64,000 nt of DNA from Fidelibacterota bacterium (GTDB lineage: Bacteria > Fidelibacterota > Marinisomatia > Marinisomatales > Marinisomataceae): the NCBI GenBank assembly GCA_038280095.1, contig JAYPYG010000003.1, positions 5,049-69,048 of the forward strand, written 5' to 3'. A program made the translations under genes and the position numbers. Below the pieces are notes generated by a model that had not been told where the DNA came from, did no database searches, and saw nothing but the letters and a program-made list of their open reading frames with translations. This document shows, in pieces, positions 4,641 through 37,316 of the stretch (positions within the stretch are counted from its first letter, which is position 1; every line of letters starts with the position of its first letter).

Positions 4641-7600
4641 TTATCTGATTGAAATATTAAGAGTTAATCCAAAATCTCTATCAACTCTTTTACCTGTTAA
4701 TCTTGTCTCGTTAGTTCGATATTCATAAAACATTCCTGCAGTAACATCATTAGTTAAGGAGTATGTTAATCGAATAACTCCTTTTCTAGTTTTTGTATAA
4801 TTTTGTTCCACAAAATTAATTTTATCCTTAGATCCTTTTTCTGAACTATTATTTAAATCAAAATTGAAATTAATATTAAAGTCATTATTCAAGTAAACAT
4901 TTCTATCCGAAAATGGTAAAGAAATCCTTAAACCCTTTGCAAAACTATAAGATAAACTTCCTAGTAAACTATTCTTTTTAACTAAGGTCATTCCAAAAGG
5001 TACCTCTCTTAGACTTAATACTGTATTTGCTCTAATATTAGTTGATATACCGTTTCGAAATGAAGTTGTTAAGCCTACAATTGGAGATAAAGAACTTGTG
5101 AGATTTGAAAATTGTAATGAATCTCCGAATTCATCTTTGAAATCCTCAACTTTCATTAAACTAATGCCTCTTATGCCGCTATCATTGAATTTCCATGATA
5201 GATTTTGCCTTCCTGTATATGAATGCTCAAGACTCATAGACTGAACATAAGGATTTATAATAGCTATATTTTCTAATCCGCTAATCCTTAGAGACCAATT
5301 AATAAATGGCAAACCTTTTGAAAGATTTTTACCATAGGAAAAATAATCTGTTGATGAAGATCTTGTATCAATATTAAATCCATTAATATTTGATGAAATA
5401 TTTTGATTAAAAGAAAAATTTAAGGATGTTCTTTGGTCTATTCTAACTCCAGTTCTAAATGATAAACTTTTCTTTTGATCATCAAAACCAGTATTAAATC
5501 CAACCTCTGAAACTGGATTAATTCCCAAATTATCTTCTAATCCTAATCTGTAGGATAATGGTATTTCTCCGTTAATACCATTTGAAATAATATTACTTAA
5601 ATTTGAAAAATTAATATTTATTGTGTCAATTTTTTTCGATTGATCGTAAAGTTTTTTTAAGATGGATTCACTATTATTTCTTGAATCTTCGTTTATTAAA
5701 TTAAAGTTTGAACGAGATCTTGTGCGTGGATTTTTTTCGCCTTTACTATGCTCGTCGTAAAATATTGATAGAATGTCTTGTGGTGTTATTGATAAACTTA
5801 AAGAAATATTCCTATTTAAATTTAAATTAGCTGCATCGATAATATTATCCCGAGGTTTATTCCATCTAAAATTAGATGAGTAACTAAATCTTGGATTAAT
5901 AATTTTTATCCAATCAGGATTAAAACGGTATACAAAAGACTCAACTGATTGGGTCTTTAATCCTATGGTAAAGTCATTAAAACTTTCATTTGGCTTAGCA
6001 CTAAAAATGGTTTTATCATAAGCAAATTCCGTATCGTTAAAAAGCTTATAGTCAATACTGAAATTTCTTTGGACATCAAAGTTCTCTTCTTTAATTAGTT
6101 CTGCATTTGATCTAGAATCTCTGGTTGTTGAGACTTTATTAATTTTAATTCCAGTTGAAAAATTTGATGGGGAATAGTAGAATTTTTTACTGCTAATTTC
6201 TTTTCCAATCAAAGGGAATTTCTTCATCCATGTAAATGCGTTTATATAGTTACCACTAGGAAATCTCAAATTGTAATCAATATTAGAATTTATATTTTTT
6301 AAATCTACAGATTTCATTATTGTATCTGATCTTTGTTGATCAGAAATACTAAATCCAGCACTTAAATTATCTATTGTATATTTTAATAATGCTTTTTCAG
6401 ATTTAATTTTCTTTGAAATTCTTCCAGAAACATTTACAACAGAAGATTGCACTAAAACAGAATCTGGTGCAGAATTTTCCAATCTTATATCTGATCCAGG
6501 TAAAAATTTTGGAGTATTTTTATTTGAATTGTAACTAATGTTTATAGGGAAAATAATGCCGAAATTTTCTGGTAGCAACTGACCGAAATTAAAATTATTT
6601 GTGTAGGATAAGGTTTCAATAGAGTTATTCGTACCAACTCTCTCTTGCAAAACATGGAAATCTGCATCTCTTTTACTATAATTAATTGAACTTGAACTAA
6701 AATTAGATAAGTTGAATTTCGATTTTATTCTTACAGCAGAACCAGATTCTTTTTTAACTCCACTAAGTCTTAATTCATCAGCCCATATTTCTCCTGATAT
6801 AGGATAATTGGCTGAATTCTCAATACCAATAATAAAATATTGTAATCTTGAAAGTGAAGGATTACCAACAATTTCGACACTTTTGTAATTATGGTTATCA
6901 TCAGATATAAATTCATAATTAATAGATTCGCTAGTTTTGGAAAAAATATCATTTGGATTAATTAAATTAATTGAAGTGTCATCATGTGTCTTAAGACTGG
7001 ATAACCAATTTAAATCTAAATTGATTTCATTTCTTTTTCTTTCTTCATCCCACCCAGAATAAATTGGTTTTGTAAGCTTATAATATTCTTGACCATTCCC
7101 AAATTTAATAAAAATGTTTACATCTGTTTGCTCAGTTGAAGAATATTCACTATTTCCATATACGAACATTTTCATTCTATCATACATCAAGAAGCTTTGG
7201 CCTATATCTTCATTAATTGAAAGTATTTTTTTTGCTGCAGCTTTATAGTTAGAGAGCAAATTATCAAATTTCAATACAATAGATTGTTCTTTTGATCTGA
7301 TTTGGTTAATCCTATCATATTCACCTACAACGCCCTTGGGAGGGATATAATTTGGGTTATCTTCATCGTTAATAACCGAAACTAGAAAAGTGCTATCCTG
7401 TGTAGTATATACCTCTTCTGATTGTAATGAGACTCCTAGCTCTTGCCAATTGTTTCCAACCAACTCAATTCTTGCAATTTCTAAAGTTGATTCCTGTTCA
7501 ACTCCCGAAACTACCAATCTAACATATTTTATTTCACTCAATGAAATATCATTGATTTTTTCAAAATGACTAATTGGAATTCTGATCAGTTTCCATCCTG

Positions 7601-10600
7601 TTTTGATACCACTTATTTCTGTTGAACCAGCAACATAAGTATCATCACTTAAAGAGACAGTTTTTGAAAAATAATTATTTGCTCTATCAAGATATCCCGA
7701 CTTATCTAAATCTTCTGAATCAGGATATTTACCACCAATTTGAATTCTATCTCCGGTACCATTACCTTCAGTACCGTTAACTTTTGTATAATCATCAGAT
7801 CCTTCAAAATAATTCCAATTATCATTATTTGGGTCATTGATATCAACGTCAATCGAATTGTTGATTAATGTTGATTCACCAGATTCTAAATATTGATTAA
7901 AAGTGGGTCCTTGAGAATCTAAACAACCTCCAAAACCATTTTCATAAATATCAAAACAACCGTCAAGACCTGTATCTTCGTTCTCATCAAGAAAACCATT
8001 TCCAAGGGCAAGTCCTGCATCAGGAATATCTTCAGTATTTAAAAAACCATTTCCATCATAATCTTCGCTGATTTTTCCTAAATCAATTGTGAGATTACCG
8101 CTATCTCCTCTTACCCATATTTCAAAAAACCTACTTCTAGTTTGATCATAATCTCCAATGAACATTGGTGAAGTAATCCCGGCCCATAATGAATCTGAAG
8201 GTACAGTAGATTGATAATCTTTAGGAGAGTATTTTAAAACTAAAATATCTGTTGTTAAATTTTGAGCTCTTTGAGAAGTAGAAATGTTAGGCCAAATACT
8301 GTTTGTTAAAACTTGTGAATAGGGGTTATACCAGTACATATTCATTCTGTGATTTTGATTGTAATCTTCAAATGAATTACTATTCAAAGGTGCAGATGAA
8401 ATATTCCAAAATCTTCGTAAAATTGAAGGATTAGTAACTCTTTTTGAACCCTCAAAATCATCAATAAATGCCACACCATTTTTATCGTCAGTTTTTGAGT
8501 TTGATATTGAATTTGGATTTGGAAGTACCTGTGCTAACTCCCCTTCAATAGAAAAATTAGAGATTTTGTTGCTATTCATAAAGCTTAAATCATTAAATCT
8601 TTCTGATAAGTTTTCTAAATCTACTTCATATCTACCATTAATATCCCAAATGAAATTTCTTATTGGCTCATACCCAACCTCAACTTTTTTATTTGCAATT
8701 GATTGATCATAATATAACGCTGTAAAACCAAGGAATGATTTTTCATCAAAATCAATTTGTGCTCTAGAGCCTGCCATAATCTTTCTATCAAAAGTAACTA
8801 AGTCATGCTTATCATACGATATTCTTAAATTATCATCTGGGTTAATATTTTCTGATAAAGTAATAGTACCAGAAAAATAATTTATTTGATAGTCTCGACC
8901 CCTTATTAGTTTATTCCCATTAGAAAAAATCTCTTCGCTTCCTTCAACGAGAGTAAATCCTAAGTTAATAGATTTCTTTGGACTGGAATAATTTACAAAA
9001 ATGGAAAATCTTGAATCACCAGCATATTCAGACAATATTGTGGAAGAGTACATTAAACCTTGCTGTAAAAATGGTTCAAGAGATTCATTATTATTACCTC
9101 CACTAATATCATTTGAAGATACAAATGGTAATAAAGCTGGTAAAAGTATCTCACCTGATTGTAAATCGATAATATTTGGATTATTATAATCAATTAATTC
9201 ATCTGGTGAACTTTCACCATTTTGATTTAGATTATCTAAACCAAAAAGATTTAAAAAAGTTATTCCGTCATTTGAGCGATCACTTTTTGGGGTTGAAAAA
9301 TTATCAATAATTCTTACTTCTAAACTTGATATATCTAAATTTGATGATCCAATGGAGTATACATTTTTAAACATTAAATCCCAGGTAGGATGACTTGGAT
9401 GTGGAGACTGAGATTTAATCATTTTAAGCTCTAACGTATTTTGGTCCAAACTAATATTTTTCCCGATATTTAAAATTGTTTCTCCAGTTTCTCTATTTAT
9501 TAAATCAAAATGAGCAGCAATAATTTCATTTTGTAGAACTTTAGTCATTTTTATAAATCCAAGATCTTCATTTATTATGTAATCGGTTCCACGTTCCAAC
9601 TTTAAAAAATTTCCTTCTTTACTTTCATCCGACTCTTCATTTTTATTAAGGGGGTTGATGTAGGCAGTACCAGGATCTGCTTCTGGATTATTTGATGCAT
9701 CAATTTTATACAATTCAAAGTTTTTTATAGAAATATTTCCTATAGGATGTAAACCATCTACTAAAGGATAAAATGAAGGTACATTGAGCTGGAAGCCACT
9801 ATCTTGAAGTATTTCATTTGAACCATTACGAAACCACTCATGTACAAAAAAGTATAAATTTTTCTTATAACTGTAGTCCTTTATTTCTATTGAATTCAAT
9901 TCAGAACTACCCTTATATAGCTGTGATTCTTTTTCGGTTTTTTCAATGGAAGCAATTGATGTTATGTTAAGTGGACCTAATTGAGAAAGTGCTTTGACTC
10001 CAAAAAGACCATTATTAGTACCAGAAAAAGTTACAAACTCCGTTGAGGGCAATGATAAAGATATATTTCCTACTTCTAAGCGTTTAAGGATATCATCTTC
10101 ACCGCCGCTATATTCAAGTCTAATAGTATTTTCCCAATCGAAATCTCTTTCTGAATTCTGATCTAAAGAAACTGTTATTCTTTCTCCAACACTTCCCTGA
10201 ACGCTAAGTTGCTGCTTTTGATCAAATTTAAAATTGGTTTTTTCTTGCTCCTTATAAGAAGATCGAACTAATTCTTGATCTTGATTTACTAACTTTGCAG
10301 AGAGGTTTATATTCCCAGATATTTGTAAAGACGCTCTTCCTAATGCGCCTAAATCTATTGAGGCAACTTGTAAATATTTATCATCTTTATTATTAGAAAT
10401 ATCATACTGCATCTTAAATGCATTTGCAATATTATACTTTTGATTTTTTGTCAATAAGTCATTTAAATAATTTTCAAAAGTATTTGTATATGGGATTGAA
10501 CGAAAATCGTTCTCTAAGTCTTTATAAATTTTAATGGATGTAAAAGATTGATCTATAAATACAACATTTGTATTTAAATCTAAATCAAAGATACCAATTG

Positions 10601-10733
10601 GATAATTGGAAATATCATTAAATGAAAAATTGATATTTTTCTTTTTAGCAAATGGATCAATGAAATAATTATCAAAATTACCAGCAAGCAATAAAGAATT
10701 GAAAAAAAGAATTGTATATAAAAGAATTCTCAT
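4641..10733 (-). CDS. sprA: type IX secretion system outer-membrane translocon SprA/Sov
   Basis: 2030-aa beta-rich protein with a signal peptide. The N-terminal block LEYSGGEDDILKRLEVGNISLSLPSTEFV...LFGVKALSQLGPLNITSIAS...YKKNLYFFVHEWFRN matches my memory of the conserved SprA N-terminal region. Size and composition fit a giant OM barrel. Confidence 0.8.
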   Translation of the reverse strand: MRILLYTILFFNSLLLAGNFDNYFIDPFAKKKNINFSFNDISNYPIGIFDLDLNTNVVFIDQSFTSIKIYKDLENDFRSIPYTNTFENYLNDLLTKNQKYNIANAFKMQYDISNNKDDKYLQVASIDLGALGRASLQISGNINLSAKLVNQDQELVRSSYKEQEKTNFKFDQKQQLSVQGSVGERITVSLDQNSERDFDWENTIRLEYSGGEDDILKRLEVGNISLSLPSTEFVTFSGTNNGLFGVKALSQLGPLNITSIASIEKTEKESQLYKGSSELNSIEIKDYSYKKNLYFFVHEWFRNGSNEILQDSGFQLNVPSFYPLVDGLHPIGNISIKNFELYKIDASNNPEADPGTAYINPLNKNEESDESKEGNFLKLERGTDYIINEDLGFIKMTKVLQNEIIAAHFDLINRETGETILNIGKNISLDQNTLELKMIKSQSPHPSHPTWDLMFKNVYSIGSSNLDISSLEVRIIDNFSTPKSDRSNDGITFLNLFGLDNLNQNGESSPDELIDYNNPNIIDLQSGEILLPALLPFVSSNDISGGNNNESLEPFLQQGLMYSSTILSEYAGDSRFSIFVNYSSPKKSINLGFTLVEGSEEIFSNGNKLIRGRDYQINYFSGTITLSENINPDDNLRISYDKHDLVTFDRKIMAGSRAQIDFDEKSFLGFTALYYDQSIANKKVEVGYEPIRNFIWDINGRYEVDLENLSERFNDLSFMNSNKISNFSIEGELAQVLPNPNSISNSKTDDKNGVAFIDDFEGSKRVTNPSILRRFWNISSAPLNSNSFEDYNQNHRMNMYWYNPYSQVLTNSIWPNISTSQRAQNLTTDILVLKYSPKDYQSTVPSDSLWAGITSPMFIGDYDQTRSRFFEIWVRGDSGNLTIDLGKISEDYDGNGFLNTEDIPDAGLALGNGFLDENEDTGLDGCFDIYENGFGGCLDSQGPTFNQYLESGESTLINNSIDVDINDPNNDNWNYFEGSDDYTKVNGTEGNGTGDRIQIGGKYPDSEDLDKSGYLDRANNYFSKTVSLSDDTYVAGSTEISGIKTGWKLIRIPISHFEKINDISLSEIKYVRLVVSGVEQESTLEIARIELVGNNWQELGVSLQSEEVYTTQDSTFLVSVINDEDNPNYIPPKGVVGEYDRINQIRSKEQSIVLKFDNLLSNYKAAAKKILSINEDIGQSFLMYDRMKMFVYGNSEYSSTEQTDVNIFIKFGNGQEYYKLTKPIYSGWDEERKRNEINLDLNWLSSLKTHDDTSINLINPNDIFSKTSESINYEFISDDNHNYKSVEIVGNPSLSRLQYFIIGIENSANYPISGEIWADELRLSGVKKESGSAVRIKSKFNLSNFSSSSINYSKRDADFHVLQERVGTNNSIETLSYTNNFNFGQLLPENFGIIFPINISYNSNKNTPKFLPGSDIRLENSAPDSVLVQSSVVNVSGRISKKIKSEKALLKYTIDNLSAGFSISDQQRSDTIMKSVDLKNINSNIDYNLRFPSGNYINAFTWMKKFPLIGKEISSKKFYYSPSNFSTGIKINKVSTTRDSRSNAELIKEENFDVQRNFSIDYKLFNDTEFAYDKTIFSAKPNESFNDFTIGLKTQSVESFVYRFNPDWIKIINPRFSYSSNFRWNKPRDNIIDAANLNLNRNISLSLSITPQDILSIFYDEHSKGEKNPRTRSRSNFNLINEDSRNNSESILKKLYDQSKKIDTININFSNLSNIISNGINGEIPLSYRLGLEDNLGINPVSEVGFNTGFDDQKKSLSFRTGVRIDQRTSLNFSFNQNISSNINGFNIDTRSSSTDYFSYGKNLSKGLPFINWSLRISGLENIAIINPYVQSMSLEHSYTGRQNLSWKFNDSGIRGISLMKVEDFKDEFGDSLQFSNLTSSLSPIVGLTTSFRNGISTNIRANTVLSLREVPFGMTLVKKNSLLGSLSYSFAKGLRISLPFSDRNVYLNNDFNINFNFDLNNSSEKGSKDKINFVEQNYTKTRKGVIRLTYSLTNDVTAGMFYEYRTNETRLTGKRVDRDFGLTLNISIR

Positions 10734-11393: not shown

Positions 11394-11466
<73 letters not shown>

Positions 11467-11476
11467 CTTCTTTATT

Positions 11477-12010
11477 ATGAAACTCAGTAAAAAAAATATA
11501 GCAATTATAGTTGTGACTACACTTCTTGTGGTCTTTATTGGTTCTTTTTTGAGACAACCAAAAGTCTATACATTCTATAAAGAACAATTTGTACCAAGCG
11601 ATATGGATACTGTATTTGAATTTTTTTCAAGACCTGAAAATCTTGAGAAAATAACTCCATCATCAATGGGTTTTAATATTATCACTCCAACGCCGATTGA
11701 AATGAAAGAAGGTGCTATAATTGACTATACTGTAAAAATTTTAGGAGTGCCTGTGCGCTGGAGAACTATGATTACTAGCTATAAAGAAAATGAATATTTT
11801 GTTGATGAGCAGCTTAAAGGTCCTTACAGTTACTGGCATCATAAACATACGTTTAAAGAGGTTGATGGAGGTATATTAATTATTGATGAAATAACTTATG
11901 CTTTACCAATTCAAGCCTTTCGAAGAATTGTTCATCCAATTTTGATAAAACCTCAGTTAAATCAAATCTTTGATTTCAGATTTCAAACAATTAAAGATAA
12001 ATTTAAGTAA
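11477..12010 (+). CDS. SRPBCC (START/cyclase-dehydrase-like) family protein with an N-terminal membrane anchor
   Basis: I start at ATG 11477 (MKLSKKNIAIIVVTTLLVVF), because the tracked ORF start at 11435 lies inside tRNA-Phe. FFSRPENLEKITP...YWHHKHTF resembles COG4276-type SRPBCC proteins. Confidence 0.65.
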   Translation: MKLSKKNIAIIVVTTLLVVFIGSFLRQPKVYTFYKEQFVPSDMDTVFEFFSRPENLEKITPSSMGFNIITPTPIEMKEGAIIDYTVKILGVPVRWRTMITSYKENEYFVDEQLKGPYSYWHHKHTFKEVDGGILIIDEITYALPIQAFRRIVHPILIKPQLNQIFDFRFQTIKDKFK

Positions 12011-12546
12011 TGATTAATTACATTCTTTCTAAGTCAAACATAATGATAAATTATGTCGGTTTTACGATTGTATGGTTTTCCTGTGTCTACAGTGGAGCTA
12101 AAGGAGACCCAATTATTGCTTTAATACCAACTTTTATTTTCTTATTCCTTCATTTTCTAATTGTCACAGACCATTTAAAAGAAGAAATACAACTAATTGT
12201 TATTTCTATTATCTTTGGTTTAATAGTTGACTCTAGTTTCTCTATACTTGGTTTTGTTAAATACAATGGTACATTAGATTTTGCGCCAAATCTAGCACCA
12301 CTTTGGATAGTTTGTATGTGGGCAGGTTTTACAGCTCAGATAAATCATGCTATGAAATTTTTGATCGGTAAATATCCATTAATTTGTTTCTATGGATTAC
12401 TTGCACCATTAGCATATATTGCTGGAGAAGGTATTGGCGCAGCTGTAGTTACAAATACTTATTTATCCTATGGATTTATTAGTATATCGTGGTCAATAAG
12501 TTTATTGTCTTTATTCAAAATTTCAGAATATTTAATGAGCAAATAA
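12010..12546 (+). CDS. DUF2878-like polytopic membrane protein
   Basis: About 5 hydrophobic helices, 178 aa. The family assignment is from memory of DUF2878 proteins that follow SRPBCC genes. The start is ambiguous (MINY occurs at codons 1 and 12). Confidence 0.5.
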   Translation: MINYILSKSNIMINYVGFTIVWFSCVYSGAKGDPIIALIPTFIFLFLHFLIVTDHLKEEIQLIVISIIFGLIVDSSFSILGFVKYNGTLDFAPNLAPLWIVCMWAGFTAQINHAMKFLIGKYPLICFYGLLAPLAYIAGEGIGAAVVTNTYLSYGFISISWSISLLSLFKISEYLMSK

Positions 12547-18912: not shown

Positions 18913-18986
18913 TGTATTATCAAAATACGTATTGTTTTATTAATTTTCACTATCAAAATTTTAAAAATTCTATTAAAAGGGTAAAA

Positions 18987-19283
18987 ATGAAAAAAGATAT
19001 TTTAGATCACGTAGCCATTTGTACTGATGATATAAATAAATCAGTTGAGTGGTATACTGAAAATTTTAAATGTGATATTTTATATCAAGATAGTTCTTGG
19101 GCAATGCTTGAATTTGATAACGTTAAGTTAGCTTTAGTTTTACCTGAACAACATCCATTCCACTTTGCTATACTAAAAGATAATGTAGAAGATTATGGTA
19201 AGCCCGTAACTCATCGAGATGGATCTGTATCAGTGTATATAAAAGATAGATCTGGCAACAACATAGAAATTCTGAGGTACTAA
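18987..19283 (+). CDS. VOC/glyoxalase-family small protein
   Basis: MKKDILDHVAICTDDINKSVEWY...HFAIL fits a single glyoxalase/bleomycin-resistance module. The start is moved from 18831 to ATG 18987, which has an RBS (aaaagggtaaaa) and avoids overlapping the divergent gene. Confidence 0.65.
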   Translation: MKKDILDHVAICTDDINKSVEWYTENFKCDILYQDSSWAMLEFDNVKLALVLPEQHPFHFAILKDNVEDYGKPVTHRDGSVSVYIKDRSGNNIEILRY

Positions 19284-19284
19284 A

Positions 19285-20148
19285 ATGAAAAGAATCGTTA
19301 TTATGAACTGTATTACAATTTCTCTCATTGTGATTTTGTCATACATTTCTACACCAAATAATCAAATCCTTACTAATCATCATTTAATAACTGGATTTGG
19401 ATCAGTAATTGCATTTATGAGTGTTTTATGGATTGTGAGTTTACTTGTTAAAGATGCAAGCATTGTTGATATTTTTTGGGGGCCTGCGTTTATAGTTCTT
19501 GGGTCCTCGTTACTTGTATCAATGGACCAAGTTTACTCTGAAAGATCGTTGTTCATTCTATTCCTAGTATCACTATGGGCAATAAGACTGGCGTCACATA
19601 TTGGATTTAGAAACATTGGTCATGGTGAAGATTTTCGATATGTTGAATGGAGAAAAGAAAGCGGTAAAAACTATTGGTGGCATAGTTTCATAAGAGTTTT
19701 TCTACTTCAAGGAGGTTTATGTACCTTAGTAGGCGTATCAATTTACTTTGGGTATCTAAATGAAAAACCTTTATCATTCATTGAGACTATGTTTGCATCA
19801 ACAATATTTTTTATTGGTCTAGCTTGGGAGTCAATTAGTGATTTGCAATTAAAAGCTTTTAGAAAAGATCCCAAAAATAAAGGTAAAATTTGTAAAAGCG
19901 GATTATGGAAGTATTCAAGACATCCTAATTATTTTGGCGATCTTGTTGTTTGGATAAGCATTTTTACTTTTAGTATTTCTAGTGAAAATCTTTTATTTAT
20001 TGCAGGTTCATTTTTAAGTCCATTGATTATGGGGTCCATTTTTTATTATATTACGGGCCCTATTATGGATCAAGCAATGATGCAAAGTAGGCCAGATTAC
20101 AAAAGATATATGAAAAATAGTAATTCACTAATTCCAAAATTCAAATAA
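19285..20148 (+). CDS. DUF1295 / steroid-5-alpha-reductase-like membrane protein
   Basis: Polytopic membrane protein. The C-terminal GLWKYSRHPNYFGD motif is typical of the DUF1295/ICMT-like superfamily. Confidence 0.7.
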   Translation: MKRIVIMNCITISLIVILSYISTPNNQILTNHHLITGFGSVIAFMSVLWIVSLLVKDASIVDIFWGPAFIVLGSSLLVSMDQVYSERSLFILFLVSLWAIRLASHIGFRNIGHGEDFRYVEWRKESGKNYWWHSFIRVFLLQGGLCTLVGVSIYFGYLNEKPLSFIETMFASTIFFIGLAWESISDLQLKAFRKDPKNKGKICKSGLWKYSRHPNYFGDLVVWISIFTFSISSENLLFIAGSFLSPLIMGSIFYYITGPIMDQAMMQSRPDYKRYMKNSNSLIPKFK

Positions 20149-20160
20149 AAGAGGGAAAAA

Positions 20161-20607
20161 ATGTATAATAAGTTATTGTTAACACTTTCAATATTCGTAT
20201 TTATAGCATGTGGTGGTGGAGCTCCACAAGAAGCACAAGTTGTAAATATTGGATCTTTAGGTTCTGAAATGAAATATGATGTTGAAGAATTCACAGTTAA
20301 AGCAGGTTCGAAGGTTAAAATTGTTTTAAAAAATAATACTCCTTTAGAGTTTATGGGTGAAATGCAACACAATATTGTCATTTTCAAAGATGAATCTGCT
20401 GCTCCAGAAATCATCAAGCTAGCTGAAAGCTACTTTGGTGGTGATGCTCCAGATGATAATAGAATTCTTGCGAAATCTATATTAATAGATAAGCAAGAAG
20501 AAACTACTATTGAATTTGACGCGCCTAAAAAGCCAGGTAGATATTTGTACGTCTGTACATATATTGCCCATGCAGGTTCTATGCGTGGTTATATGATCGT
20601 AGAGTAA
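20161..20607 (+). CDS. azurin-like type-1 copper (cupredoxin) lipoprotein
   Basis: Lipobox VFIAC|GGG. N-terminal ligand region MGEMQHNIV (compare azurin MGHNWV). C-terminal CTYIAHAGSMRG has azurin spacing Cys-x4-His-x3-Met. Confidence 0.75.
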   Translation: MYNKLLLTLSIFVFIACGGGAPQEAQVVNIGSLGSEMKYDVEEFTVKAGSKVKIVLKNNTPLEFMGEMQHNIVIFKDESAAPEIIKLAESYFGGDAPDDNRILAKSILIDKQEETTIEFDAPKKPGRYLYVCTYIAHAGSMRGYMIVE

Positions 20608-20631
20608 TTCCTTTTTAGAGCATTAACACGC

Positions 20632-20689
20632 TTGGATGAATTTATAAATCTGCATATATTACGATTCTAATATTGAGATTATATCTCAA
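20632..20689 (+). promoter_or_regulatory. candidate promoter (TTGGAT-17-TATATT) followed by a 7-3-7 perfect palindrome TTGAGAT-tat-ATCTCAA
   Basis: Hexamers at 20632-20637 and 20655-20660, palindrome at 20673-20689, and RBS aaaggga before ATG 20701. The site lies in the 93-nt gap between the cupredoxin and FTR1 genes. Confidence 0.35.
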
Positions 20690-20700
20690 AAGGGAAAAAT

Positions 20701-21564
20701 ATGAGTGAATTTTTAATTATGTTTAGAGAAGTGCTTGAAGGAGTGCTTGTTGTAGGAATACTTTATACTTTTATCGTTAAAACAGGTAGAGAACATTTAA
20801 AGAAAAGTATAATTAATGGTGTTATTGCATCATTTGTGGCTACTGGAATCTTTGCTGTTATATTTCAAATTTTGTATGGAGGCTTCGAAGGAAAGCAGGC
20901 TGCTCTTTTTGAAGGGACAACCATGTTAATTGCTGCCTTTTTGCTTTCAACAATGATTATTTGGATGGGTAGAAATAAGAATGTTGCTGCAAGTTTAGAA
21001 AAAGAAGCTTCAGATATAATTGAAAAAGATAAGAATGTTTCTTTAGGTCTTTTTGCATTAACATTTTTTGCAATTTTCAGAGAAGGTGTTGAAGTAGTAC
21101 TTTTCATGTATGCTATTGTAATCCAATCAAATGGTCTTTCTATTGGTGGCTCAGTTTTAGGATCTATTGTTGCGCTAATGATTGGTTACGCAATCTTTGT
21201 ACAAGGTAAAAGAGTTCCTTTAAAACAGTTCTTTAATGTGACATCTATATTACTCATTTTTGTATGTGCTGGATTAGTTGCATATGGCGTTCATGAATTC
21301 GAAGAAGCATTTTATACTAAAGATGAAATGAAGCAAATGGAGATATGGAATGTTAATGACAAAGGTCCCGTTTTTGGATTTAATATCGATAATAATGGAA
21401 CTCCAAAACCACTATTGAGCGATAAAGGTGCAATAGGACAGTTGTTCAAAGGCTTTTTCGGATATAATGGTAACCCAACTTCTACAGAGCTGGTCAGTTG
21501 GCTACTTACTTTAACCCTTGTATCATTTCTTTGGAAAAGAGCATCTAATCCTAACAAGACATAA
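20701..21564 (+). CDS. FTR1/EfeU-family high-affinity iron permease
   Basis: Two REXXE motifs in TM helices (FREVLEG at the N-terminus, FREGVEVVLF mid-protein). 7-TM pattern, 287 aa. Confidence 0.85.
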   Translation: MSEFLIMFREVLEGVLVVGILYTFIVKTGREHLKKSIINGVIASFVATGIFAVIFQILYGGFEGKQAALFEGTTMLIAAFLLSTMIIWMGRNKNVAASLEKEASDIIEKDKNVSLGLFALTFFAIFREGVEVVLFMYAIVIQSNGLSIGGSVLGSIVALMIGYAIFVQGKRVPLKQFFNVTSILLIFVCAGLVAYGVHEFEEAFYTKDEMKQMEIWNVNDKGPVFGFNIDNNGTPKPLLSDKGAIGQLFKGFFGYNGNPTSTELVSWLLTLTLVSFLWKRASNPNKT

Positions 21565-34439: not shown

Positions 34440-34526
34440 ATATCCACTAAGGGTATATTGCACTTAAAATGAAGTGCGTACCGAACGATTTATATTAATA
34501 ATATGTACATAAACAAAGGAAATAAA

Positions 34527-37316
34527 ATGAGAAAGCTATATAACATGCTAGCATTAGTAGTTGCTATCTCCGGCTTTATGTTTGCACAAGGTTCAGTTTC
34601 AGGTACAGTTACTGATGGAAATGGGAATGCCCTATTTGGTGCTAACGTAACAGTTGAAGGTACAGCGTCTGGTGCTGCAACAGGAGCTGATGGTTCTTAT
34701 TCAGTCGACGGTGTTACAAGTGGAACATATACTGTTACTGCTTCATACATTGGATACGAATCCGCCAGTATTTCTGTAAATGTAGATGGTGCTTCTACTG
34801 CTAATTTTTCTTTAGCATCTAGCGCTGTGGCTGGGAACGCTGTTTCTGTCCTTGGTTCTAGATTTTCAAGAAATGTTGATGAACAAGCTGTTCCAGTTGA
34901 AGTAATTACTGAGCTTGAAATTCGTGCATCTGGTTTCACAGAGACCAATGAACTTTTGCAAGCCTTAGTTCCATCCTATAATTCTCCGAAAGGTTATATT
35001 ACTGATGGTTCTGACCACATGAGACCAGCAACCCTAAGAGGTATGGCTCCTAATCAGACTCTTGTACTTGTAAATGGTAAAAGACGTCACCAAGGTGCTT
35101 TAGTTCACGTTAATGGTTCTGTTGGTAGAGGATCTACACAAGTAGATTTAAACGCTATTCCTGCGAGTGCAATTGAAAAGATTGAAGTACTTCGCGATGG
35201 TGCTGCCGCACAATATGGTTCAGATGCAGTAGCGGGTGTTATAAATCTTGTACTTAAAGAAACAGGTGGATCAGATGTAAGTGTAACTTTTGGACAAAAC
35301 TTATCTTACTTTGAAAGAGGATACAATGCTGGAGAGGGCTTTATTGATGGTCAAGATGACACTACTTACGGTTGGGATGTTAACGAAAACGATGGTATTG
35401 GTTATCAACCGTATACAGCTGATAGAGGCTGGGCACGTCCAGGTGTTGAAAAGGTTCTAAAGAAAGATGGTAAAAATTTAATAGTTCATGGTGGAACTGG
35501 TCTAAATGTATTAGGTGGAAATTTATACGTTAGTGGTCAATTCCGTGATGGTGGAAGAACAAATCGTGCTGGTCTTGATCCAAGAAGGCAATATTTTGCT
35601 GGAATGGATGAAGAGGAACGTGCATTTAACAGAGAAAATCACCGAATTGGTGCAGGTGCTTTTGAACAAGTTAGTTTAATGTTCAATGGTAGTTTTCCAA
35701 TGGAAAGAGGTACTTTATATGCCTTTGGTGGAATGAATACACGTGATGGTGAAAGTGGATGTTATTACAGAAGAGCCCAAGATAATAGAACTCTTCGTGC
35801 ATGGTATCCAGATGGATTCTTACCGCTAATTAGCCCAACTCTAACAGATACATCTGTGGCTGTGGGTATGAAGGGCTTAATGAGCAATGGAATGGCTTAC
35901 GATGTTAGTGTTAATACTGGTAGTAATGAATTTGCATGGGGCATGGTAAATAGTCACAATGCAACTGCTGGTACCGGTCCTAATCAACAATCAGAATTTG
36001 ATTTAGGTACACTAGGCTACAGCCAAACGACTGTGAATGTTGACATGAGCACTCAGAGAGATATGGCAGGTTTTGTTGGTCCTGTAAGTTTAGCATTTGG
36101 TGCAGAATTAAGAATGGAAAACTATGAAATCGAAGCTGGTGAAGAAGCTGGTTATACAGACTATGGCTATGATGTCTTAGATGGTCCTAATGCTGGTGCT
36201 TCAGCTGCTGTTGGTTGTCAATGTCTTCCTGGTTTAGCACCTACTAATGAGCAAGATCGTGATAGAGAAGCTGTTAGTATTTATGCTGAAATGAGTGGTA
36301 ATGTTATGGAGGAATTACAATTAGATGTTGCTCTAAGAACTGAAAATTACAGTGACTTTGGCTCAACAACTAATGGTAAAGTTGCGATGAGATATGAATT
36401 AGCTGATGGAGTTGCAGCTAGAGGTTCCTTTAGTACAGGATTTAGAGCTCCAGCACTTCAAGAAGCATACTTCTCATCAATAGCCACAAACTTTATTGAT
36501 GGGGTACCTCTAGAAGTAGGTACTTTCCCTGTTGATACTGAAGCTGCAAGAGCACTTGGATCAAAAGATCTAGAGCCAGAAACTTCAACAAATATCTCAG
36601 CAGGAATGACTTATAAAGATGAACAGTTCTCACTCTCAGTTGATGCTTATCAAATCAATGTTGATGACCGCATTAGCATGAGTGAAACTTTCAGAGGAAG
36701 TGGTGCTACATCTGATATGGTTACATTCTTTGAAGAAAGAGGTGTTCCAGCTTCAGGTGGAAGATATTTCTTTAATGGTATCAACACCGAAACAAAAGGA
36801 CTTGATATCGTTGCAACTATGAGACAAGATGTTGCTATGGGTTCATTAACGCTGAAAGCGGCAATGAACTTTAACGATACTGAAGTTACAAACAAAGATG
36901 ATCTTGTTACTCCAGATGAACTTGCTGCATACACAACCAGTCAGTTATTAGGTAGACAAAATACAGTCAGATATGAAAGTTCATCTCCAAAAGAAAACTT
37001 CCAATTTTCTGCGATGTTGCAAAAACCGACATCAACATTAATGGCGAAGTTAAATCGTTGGGGTGAAGTAACTATCCCTGCATCTTCAGTTGAAAGAGAG
37101 CAATTTCTAAGTTCAAAATGGACTGTAGATATGGAATATTCTTTCCAATTAAATAGTCAAGTTAGAATGGCACTAGGTGTAAATAACTTGCTAGACGAAT
37201 ATCCTGACAAAACTGTGAAAATAAACAGTTTTAATGGAATTTTCCAACATTCAGGATATAGTCCATTTGGATTTAGTGGTAGATACATCTACACTCGTTT
37301 AGATATGAATTTGTAA
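34527..37316 (+). CDS. TonB-dependent outer-membrane receptor with N-terminal carboxypeptidase-regulatory-like domain
   Basis: Starts at ATG 34527 (RBS aaagga) with signal peptide ...GFMFA|QGSVSG. CarboxypepD_reg-like GTVTDGNGNALFGANVTVEG...YTVTASYIGYES. Plug motifs NQTLVLVNGKRRH and IEKIEVLRDGAAAQYGSDAVAGVINLVLK. Long barrel. Confidence 0.88.
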   Translation: MRKLYNMLALVVAISGFMFAQGSVSGTVTDGNGNALFGANVTVEGTASGAATGADGSYSVDGVTSGTYTVTASYIGYESASISVNVDGASTANFSLASSAVAGNAVSVLGSRFSRNVDEQAVPVEVITELEIRASGFTETNELLQALVPSYNSPKGYITDGSDHMRPATLRGMAPNQTLVLVNGKRRHQGALVHVNGSVGRGSTQVDLNAIPASAIEKIEVLRDGAAAQYGSDAVAGVINLVLKETGGSDVSVTFGQNLSYFERGYNAGEGFIDGQDDTTYGWDVNENDGIGYQPYTADRGWARPGVEKVLKKDGKNLIVHGGTGLNVLGGNLYVSGQFRDGGRTNRAGLDPRRQYFAGMDEEERAFNRENHRIGAGAFEQVSLMFNGSFPMERGTLYAFGGMNTRDGESGCYYRRAQDNRTLRAWYPDGFLPLISPTLTDTSVAVGMKGLMSNGMAYDVSVNTGSNEFAWGMVNSHNATAGTGPNQQSEFDLGTLGYSQTTVNVDMSTQRDMAGFVGPVSLAFGAELRMENYEIEAGEEAGYTDYGYDVLDGPNAGASAAVGCQCLPGLAPTNEQDRDREAVSIYAEMSGNVMEELQLDVALRTENYSDFGSTTNGKVAMRYELADGVAARGSFSTGFRAPALQEAYFSSIATNFIDGVPLEVGTFPVDTEAARALGSKDLEPETSTNISAGMTYKDEQFSLSVDAYQINVDDRISMSETFRGSGATSDMVTFFEERGVPASGGRYFFNGINTETKGLDIVATMRQDVAMGSLTLKAAMNFNDTEVTNKDDLVTPDELAAYTTSQLLGRQNTVRYESSSPKENFQFSAMLQKPTSTLMAKLNRWGEVTIPASSVEREQFLSSKWTVDMEYSFQLNSQVRMALGVNNLLDEYPDKTVKINSFNGIFQHSGYSPFGFSGRYIYTRLDMNL

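Follow-up and report, generated by a model that had tools for sequence, protein, structure and literature searches.

Does a small blue-copper lipoprotein encoded directly upstream of an FTR1-family iron permease serve that permease, or are the two genes simply neighbours? The question is raised by a stretch of 64,000 nucleotides (nt) from a Fidelibacterota bacterium (contig JAYPYG010000003.1, positions 5,049 to 69,048), hereafter the window, which belongs to the marine clade SAR406 (Marinimicrobia). An earlier note, made from the letters of the window, had proposed that the two genes form a stripped-down two-component module for the oxidation and uptake of Fe(II), and that a palindrome in the 93-nt gap between them (20608-20700) acts as a repressor operator or as a hairpin in the 5' untranslated region (UTR). 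The two open reading frames (ORFs), the gap and the palindrome are all where that note had placed them (Table 1). Comparison with related genomes leads us to a different reading of the pair, to which we give a probability of about 0.68: two adjacent units under separate control, one a copper carrier probably expressed with the VOC and DUF1295 genes that precede it, the other an iron-uptake cassette that would be controlled through the palindrome. The arrangement indicates that the copper protein and FTR1 are neighbours and not a dedicated pair.

The comparison set consisted of 35 species-level Marinimicrobia genomes carrying an orthologue of the copper protein (56-100% identity), to which metagenome contigs were added. 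The window and 49 related loci, 50 sources in all, each contain a single copy of the core of the palindromic repeat, TGAGA-N5-TCTCA (20674-20688), at the orthologous place and always upstream of FTR1 or futA, whether the preceding gene is the copper protein or a dehydratase on the opposite strand. Among 17 distinct versions of the repeat the 10 core bases are identical and the five central bases are free. The outer T/A pair differs in three FutA promoters only, and in the repeat of locus L041 both outer bases are altered symmetrically (ATGAGA...TCTCAT); the seventh pair of the window's perfect 7-3-7 palindrome is not conserved. In 16 diverged sequences the six arm pairs show no variation and no covariation. 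The operator-like palindrome of the earlier note is a real conserved element with invariant arms, and it goes with the transporter gene rather than with the gene pair. Its significance derives entirely from this conservation and not from the statistics of the window, where 10 perfect 7-3-7 inverted repeats compare with 11.4 +/- 3.5 in Markov-1 simulations, so that the window alone would have made the palindrome no more than a chance occurrence. For TTGAGA-N5-TCTCAA with at most one mismatch, 0.57 chance occurrences are expected in the window, and no further copy at this stringency lies in an intergenic or promoter place within its 64 kb.

The repeat is part of a compact promoter region, 12 nt past the -10 box and 2 nt ahead of the ribosome-binding site (GGG, 20692-20694). 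When 16 diverged intergenic regions are aligned (column identity 63% on average), three conserved islands stand out, namely a -35 element TTGA(A/C)(T/G), the hexamer TATATT and the repeat, and TATATT is without change across these regions (alignment A2). The corresponding promoter of L023, TTGACG-17-TATATT, scores 10/12 in the promoter scan. The element TTGGAT-17-TATATT, which the earlier note had pointed out in the gap, is present and its counterparts are conserved in relatives; the window copy fits the -35 consensus at only 3/6 positions and stays under the threshold of the scan, which is in any case uninformative for the window as a whole in DNA of 31% GC (25 matches vs 18 expected). Judging from the alignment, the FTR1 or futA gene has its own conserved sigma-70-like promoter.

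Both promoter and repeat travel with the transporter. In 6 of the 35 SAR406 species (L016, L021, L022, L026, L041 and L042), FTR1 is swapped for a FutABC-type ABC transporter composed of a substrate-binding protein, a fused two-domain permease and an ATPase, and the copper protein is kept in all six. The substrate-binding protein is a homologue of FutA/IdiA (E 1e-100 to Trichodesmium FutA 6g7n and 2e-97 to 2pt1), such that a cassette like the cyanobacterial FutABC/IdiA system occupies the place of FTR1; in contrast with that system, the SAR406 cassette, which is absent from the window itself, is preceded by the TGAGA-N5-TCTCA repeat. Clustering of the flanking proteins groups the FutABC-bearing L041 with the window itself (flank identity 89%) and places L026, likewise FutABC-bearing, beside the FTR1-bearing L023-L025, which shows that the replacements were independent. 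FTR1 alleles are also exchanged across lineages: in L027 and L029, flank identity to the window is 67-68% and FTR1 identity 87%. In about nine species the copper protein and FTR1 are parted by an NAD(P)HX-dehydratase gene that runs the other way, and in five species (L023, L024, L025, L028 and L030) a hairpin lies downstream of the copper protein gene and before the promoter of FTR1. The hairpin at L023:10462-10493, with a 13-bp stem flanked by an A-run and a U-run (-17.2 kcal/mol, z -4.8 upon folding), is probably a terminator; a simple terminator scan passed over it because its loop exceeds 8 nt. Separately, in L044 (6975-7727), L045 and L046 a gene for an HxlR-family regulator (- strand) and one for a zf-CDGSH iron-sulfur protein (+ strand) are inserted between FTR1 and NUDIX, as further variable iron-related cargo of the transporter slot.

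On its other side, the copper protein gene is closely bound to its upstream neighbours. The VOC gene is the first of three co-oriented genes, VOC-DUF1295-copper protein, and stands on the same strand ahead of the copper protein in nearly all related loci. The gaps in the window are 1 nt between VOC and DUF1295, 12 nt between DUF1295 and the copper protein, and 93 nt between the copper protein and FTR1; in L044 and L047 the DUF1295 gene and its neighbours overlap by 8 nt or stand 2 nt apart. The DUF1295 gene is missing from some SAR406 lineages. From this packing, the copper protein is probably co-transcribed with VOC and DUF1295. Beyond these genes the entire region is collinear: in 35 of 35 SAR406 species, and in additional metagenome contigs, the order runs RND efflux pump, LON_N (- strand), VOC, DUF1295 (optional), copper protein, transporter, NUDIX (- strand), HAD, two SDRs and LptD. 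With the whole region collinear, that the copper protein and FTR1 sit side by side says no more than the proximity of any other two genes in it.

Table 1. Features of the copper protein-FTR1 region of the window (window coordinates)
Feature	Position	Strand	Details
Small VOC/glyoxalase-fold gene	18984..19283	+	99 aa; Pfam Glyoxalase E 2e-7
DUF1295 membrane protein (steroid-reductase/ICMT-like)	19285..20148	+	287 aa; Pfam DUF1295 E 5.8e-59
Auracyanin-like type-1 (blue) copper lipoprotein	20161..20607	+	148 aa; PF00127, auracyanin matches
Promoter-like element of the iron-transporter gene	20632..20660	+	TTGGAT 20632-20637, 17 nt, TATATT 20655-20660
Operator-like inverted repeat TTGAGAT-TAT-ATCTCAA	20673..20689	.	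core TGAGA-N5-TCTCA at 20674-20688
FTR1/EfeU-family iron permease	20701..21564	+	287 aa; Pfam FTR1, two REXXE

By its sequence the copper protein is a true type-1 copper protein and belongs with the azurins and auracyanins. The azurin ligand spacing recognized in the earlier note is confirmed, with His70, Cys132, His137 and Met141 as ligands in the pattern MQH70N ... C132-TYIA-H137-AGS-M141 (C-x4-H-x3-M). All four are without change in 13 homologues of 56-100% identity, and the acidic residues E63 and E67 precede the His70 ligand (alignment A1). The protein lies above the cutoff of Pfam Copper-bind (40.2 bits, cutoff 21.2, E 4.7e-10) and fails as an azurin sensu stricto (TIGR02695, 33.6 bits vs a cutoff of 105.1). 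Among solved structures its sequence is matched best by two auracyanins, from Roseiflexus (6kol) and Chloroflexus (2aan), with E ~1e-13, followed by azurins and Neisseria Laz at E ~1e-6. An AlphaFold2 model (pLDDT 76, eight strands) has the Greek-key beta-sandwich fold of cupredoxins, and a Foldseek search with it returned three auracyanin structures first (E 1e-9, 34% identity) and azurins next, with a probability of 1.0. The signal peptide ends in a lipobox-like ...SIFVFIAC17GGG, and lipidation at Cys17 is predicted.

Auracyanins are tethered to the membrane and work with Alternative Complex III. Like the auracyanins (Chloroflexus A/B and Roseiflexus; 2aan, 1qhq, 6kol), the window protein is a single-domain type-1 copper protein with the ligand pattern QHN...C-x4-H-x3-M, and the N-terminal Cys/Gly-rich tether region of auracyanin A aligns with it. 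It differs from them in being only ~34% identical, in belonging to a non-phototrophic bacterium of the FCB group, and in the position of its gene behind VOC/DUF1295. With azurin and the lipid-modified azurin Laz of Neisseria (2n0m, 3ay2; lipid-modified according to the depositors' name) it shares the fold and the ligand spacing, but it has Gln instead of Gly ahead of the first His ligand. An identity as FtrB, the cupredoxin-like component of FtrABCD, was rejected: FtrB (Cup-II) is without a His-His-Cys site and uses Asp118/His121 (PMC11966278), whereas the window protein has the full canonical His-Cys-His-Met site together with its auracyanin/azurin matches, and the FtrB structure 8VUK is absent among its top 50 Foldseek fold matches. 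We predict a conventional, membrane-anchored, auracyanin-like electron carrier, and infer that its redox partner is more likely respiratory, or linked to DUF1295 and a set of photo-oxidative-stress genes, than specific to FTR1.

The relatives of the copper protein outside SAR406 keep other company. The window protein is 100% identical to that of the Candidatus Neomarinimicrobiota (SAR406) single-cell genome AH-736-N04, and the SAR406 family is isolated: when 1.8 billion representative proteins were searched with a profile, scores dropped from 280 bits to 145 and ~120 bits, the latter two belonging to other lipoprotein copper proteins. The nearest sister families are ~40-50% identical to one another, marine, and include Marinamargulisbacteria. 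A hidden Markov model (HMM) of FTR1, built from eight SAR406 sequences, found no match in 75 sister copper protein loci totalling 475 kb (33 loci of at least 5 kb). One sister, L054, lies directly after a SCO1-COX2-COX1-COX3-COX4-CtaA operon, and four (L052, L072, L073 and L075) adjoin a two-domain copper oxidase. At least 15 sister loci are clustered with genes for DUF429, PNPOx-like, photolyase/DPRP, SDR, GSHPx, NmrA-DUF2867 and HamA_HO-like proteins, a cluster that also includes DUF1295 in L050, and DUF2878 and NUDIX in L055. The light/oxidative-stress clusters around sister lipoprotein blue-copper proteins can be consulted at L050-L064, L066 and L076-L077.

The permease, for its part, is by its sequence a genuine member of the FTR1 family (Pfam PF03239, 155 bits, cutoff 25.3, E 3.5e-45), and both REXXE motifs reported earlier, REVLE at residue 9 and REGVE at residue 127, are kept in 17 orthologues. 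The 120 best FTR1 homologue matches are all SAR406 proteins in the same synteny. No EfeO, EfeB, P19, polyferredoxin, Fur or respiratory genes were found by Pfam scans of the ~45 ORFs of the window, nor any EfeO (M75), EfeB (DyP), P19 or polyferredoxin gene in flanks of up to ~10 kb in the 35 related species. As the earlier note had remarked, only a single-domain copper lipoprotein adjoins the permease, which is by its surroundings an orphan. While it belongs to the same family as the permeases of FtrABCD (Brucella/Bordetella), EfeUOB and Fet3p-Ftr1p, and shares both REXXE motifs with them, it differs in that no P19/FtrA, FtrD, EfeO, EfeB or multicopper oxidase gene is near it. Membership of EfeUOB was rejected on the absence of efeO and efeB from window and flanks and on a score of 177 bits against the EfeU equivalog NF041756 (cutoff 255). 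Membership of FtrABCD was likewise rejected, with neither P19/FtrA nor FtrD nearby and an adjacent copper protein that is not FtrB-like.

Several variations were seen within the SAR406 FTR1 proteins. Many orthologues carry an extra, presumably cytoplasmic, C-terminal tail with four cysteines, CPxC-x10-12-CxNC, as seen in L005:7406-8350, L023:10584-11516, L031:10503-11417, L032:10464-11549, L035:11402-12343 and L037:3054-4031; it is absent from the FTR1 of the window (a short form) and from that of L036. This tail resembles a zinc ribbon or a rubredoxin knuckle, with Pfam DZR and HypA matches below threshold, and could be a metal-binding or redox tail of the permease. In the FTR1 of L032:10464-11549 and L036:3217-4182, and also of L039 and L047, an insertion of ~38 residues rich in charged amino acids follows HEF(D/E), in the loop ahead of the last transmembrane helix. 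Finally, the FTR1 protein P0206 (L044-L046) is labelled 'Hyphomicrobiales bacterium' and stands in clear SAR406 synteny, such that its bin is probably misassigned.

Could the copper protein nevertheless be the missing partner of this orphan permease? As a one-electron oxidase, it would pass the electron of Fe(II) to the respiratory chain while FTR1 imports the resulting Fe(III), and by extension FutA, too, could receive Fe(III) from it. The FTR1 permeases characterized so far work with an oxidase (PMC11966278), the usual partners are missing from the window and flanks, the copper protein is tethered to the membrane in the right compartment and carries the acidic pair E63 and E67 near its first ligand, and the two genes are adjacent or nearly so in 35 of 35 species. 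That last point loses its force in a neighbourhood that is collinear as a whole, and the copper protein is retained where FutABC has replaced FTR1. A two-gene module should moreover be co-transcribed, and co-inherited within and beyond the clade; it was rejected on these grounds, given the separate promoter and operator-like repeat of FTR1, the swap for FutABC, the hairpin or opposite-strand gene that intervenes in many species, the tight packing of the copper protein with VOC/DUF1295 instead, and the count of 0 of 75 sister loci with FTR1. Nor is the copper protein FtrB-like, and at least one FTR1, from Rhizophagus, is reported to work without a ferroxidase (PMC11836134). The Fe(II) oxidation and uptake module of the earlier note is thus unsupported, and we consider an oxidase partnership with FTR1 very unlikely. 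What was found is co-conservation of the copper protein with VOC/DUF1295, and sisters accompanied by cox, copper-oxidase or photolyase-SDR genes and not by FTR1, an outcome that the earlier note had itself named as refuting its proposal. A looser version appears slightly less probable still: with its single copper, the auracyanin-like protein would act as a minimal ferroxidase or electron sink for whichever importer adjoins it, oxidizing Fe(II) at the membrane surface for FTR1, delivering Fe(III) to FutA, and handing the electron on to the respiratory chain. A further alternative concerns the copper unit alone: instead of a general respiratory carrier, the copper protein may be part of a membrane redox unit for light or oxidative stress, together with VOC/DUF1295, SDR, NUDIX and DUF2878 proteins. 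The nearest sister families lie in photolyase/GSHPx-type clusters at the 15 or more loci mentioned above, L050 and L055 share DUF1295 and DUF2878 plus NUDIX, respectively, and in the window the copper protein is surrounded by DUF2878 (12010-12546), VOC, DUF1295, NUDIX and two SDR genes. Yet the window contains no photolyase, the neighbouring families are common ones, the cox-operon sister and the four copper-oxidase sisters fit a conventional carrier, and no biochemical precedent was found; we regard this proposal as tentative and rather doubtful, though less so than an oxidase dedicated to iron import.

For the iron-uptake unit, the best reading of the repeat is as the operator of a putative iron-responsive repressor controlling an interchangeable cassette. 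A conserved inverted repeat at the iron-uptake promoter, as expected of an operator, is present in 50 of 50 sources and ahead of two non-homologous importers. A dimeric DNA-binding repressor would account for half-sites that are invariant, a spacer that is free and a repeat that lies over the transcription start; because the repeat precedes two iron importers unrelated to each other, a regulator that responds to iron is suggested. When iron is sufficient, a dimeric iron-sensing repressor would occupy the repeat and block transcription initiation or early elongation, and when iron is limited the repeat would be free and the permease produced. The palindrome could alternatively work as RNA, either as a 5'-UTR hairpin, a possibility already raised in the earlier note, which would govern the stability or the translation of the mRNA from a place near the ribosome-binding site, or as the target of an RNA-binding protein or a small RNA. 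In most species the repeat comes after the inferred -10 box and before the ribosome-binding site and would be transcribed, and folding of the 43-nt leader gives -7.5 kcal/mol (z -2.4). However, the isolated repeat hairpin is weak (-3.9 to -5.0 kcal/mol), no Rfam family was matched in a scan of 20100-20800, and in L031 and L034 the repeat is upstream of the only TATATT box. The 17 variants show no compensatory or wobble changes, and their fixed pairs and free loop indicate readout of sequence over structure. A role as RNA is for us unlikely.

Known iron boxes offer a point of comparison for such an operator. The Irr ICE box is TTTAGAA-N3-TTCTAAA and the RirA IRO box TGA-N9-TCA. The SAR406 repeat, 15 bp long, has a TGA-N9-TCA geometry which we take to resemble Fur-family 7-1-7 boxes as well as the ICE and IRO boxes, a likeness that serves as a lead only. 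Like these boxes, it is an inverted repeat of the 15-17-bp class over an iron-uptake promoter with TGA-N9-TCA outer bases, and each half-site agrees with the ICE half-site at 5/6 positions. With the canonical Fur box, GATAATGATAATCATTATC / TGATAATnATTATCA, it shares TGA-N9-TCA, the inner positions being unconstrained; agreement with TGATAATnATTATCA is 9/14 in a hand alignment to the consensus.

A number of observations weigh against the picture of two separately controlled units with a repressor at the second. The copper protein and the iron importer are at most one gene apart in all SAR406 genomes examined, and no other candidate oxidase partner for FTR1 is nearby. No terminator was detected in the 93-nt gap of the window, and read-through co-transcription of FTR1 with the copper protein is therefore possible there. 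In L031 and L034 the repeat lies ~33 nt upstream of TATATT, directly after the stop codon of the copper protein, so its placement with respect to the promoter varies, which does not fit a simple roadblock model. No regulator was found, Pfam scans of the 64-kb window having yielded no Fur-like gene, and no second site for the motif, which would have pointed to a regulon, was found in the window. The invariant arms are also compatible with a sequence-specific RNA element.

An iron-repressed uptake cassette is in itself an ordinary kind of system. The TGAGA-N5-TCTCA motif and the swapping of FTR1 and FutABC appear to be undescribed for SAR406, and the literature searched offered nothing relevant on an auracyanin, a cupredoxin, FTR1, a Fur box or alternative complex III of Marinimicrobia. 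Iron limits much of the productivity of the ocean, whose interior has SAR406 among its most abundant uncultured bacterial groups. If the two-unit reading holds, the 15-bp TGAGA-N5-TCTCA would mark iron-regulated SAR406 promoters and the iron regulon of the clade could be defined from metagenomes. The slot beside the copper protein would then be a recombination hotspot where FTR1 permease and FutABC are switched, probably as one way in which lineages adapt to niches that differ in iron supply. Should the copper protein prove to be a minimal ferroxidase after all, a streamlined ocean bacterium would possess a ferroxidase-permease system of just two small proteins. The locus further calls for caution, as deducing functional pairs from adjacency is unsafe in streamlined, highly collinear genomes. 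How an orphan FTR1 works when its vicinity encodes neither EfeO, EfeB nor P19 is a mechanistic puzzle in its own right.

Other genes of the window deserve brief mention. A TonB-dependent receptor of SusC-like type with an N-terminal carboxypeptidase-regulatory-like domain is encoded at 34503-37316 (+ strand); no TGAGA-N5-TCTCA lies upstream of it, and hence there is no sign of a control element shared with the transporter cassette. Directly upstream of the RND efflux operon, an SRPBCC/polyketide-cyclase-like gene and the DUF2878 gene occupy 11435-12546 (+ strand). Finally, a giant ORF of 2030 aa extends over 4641-10733 on the - strand.

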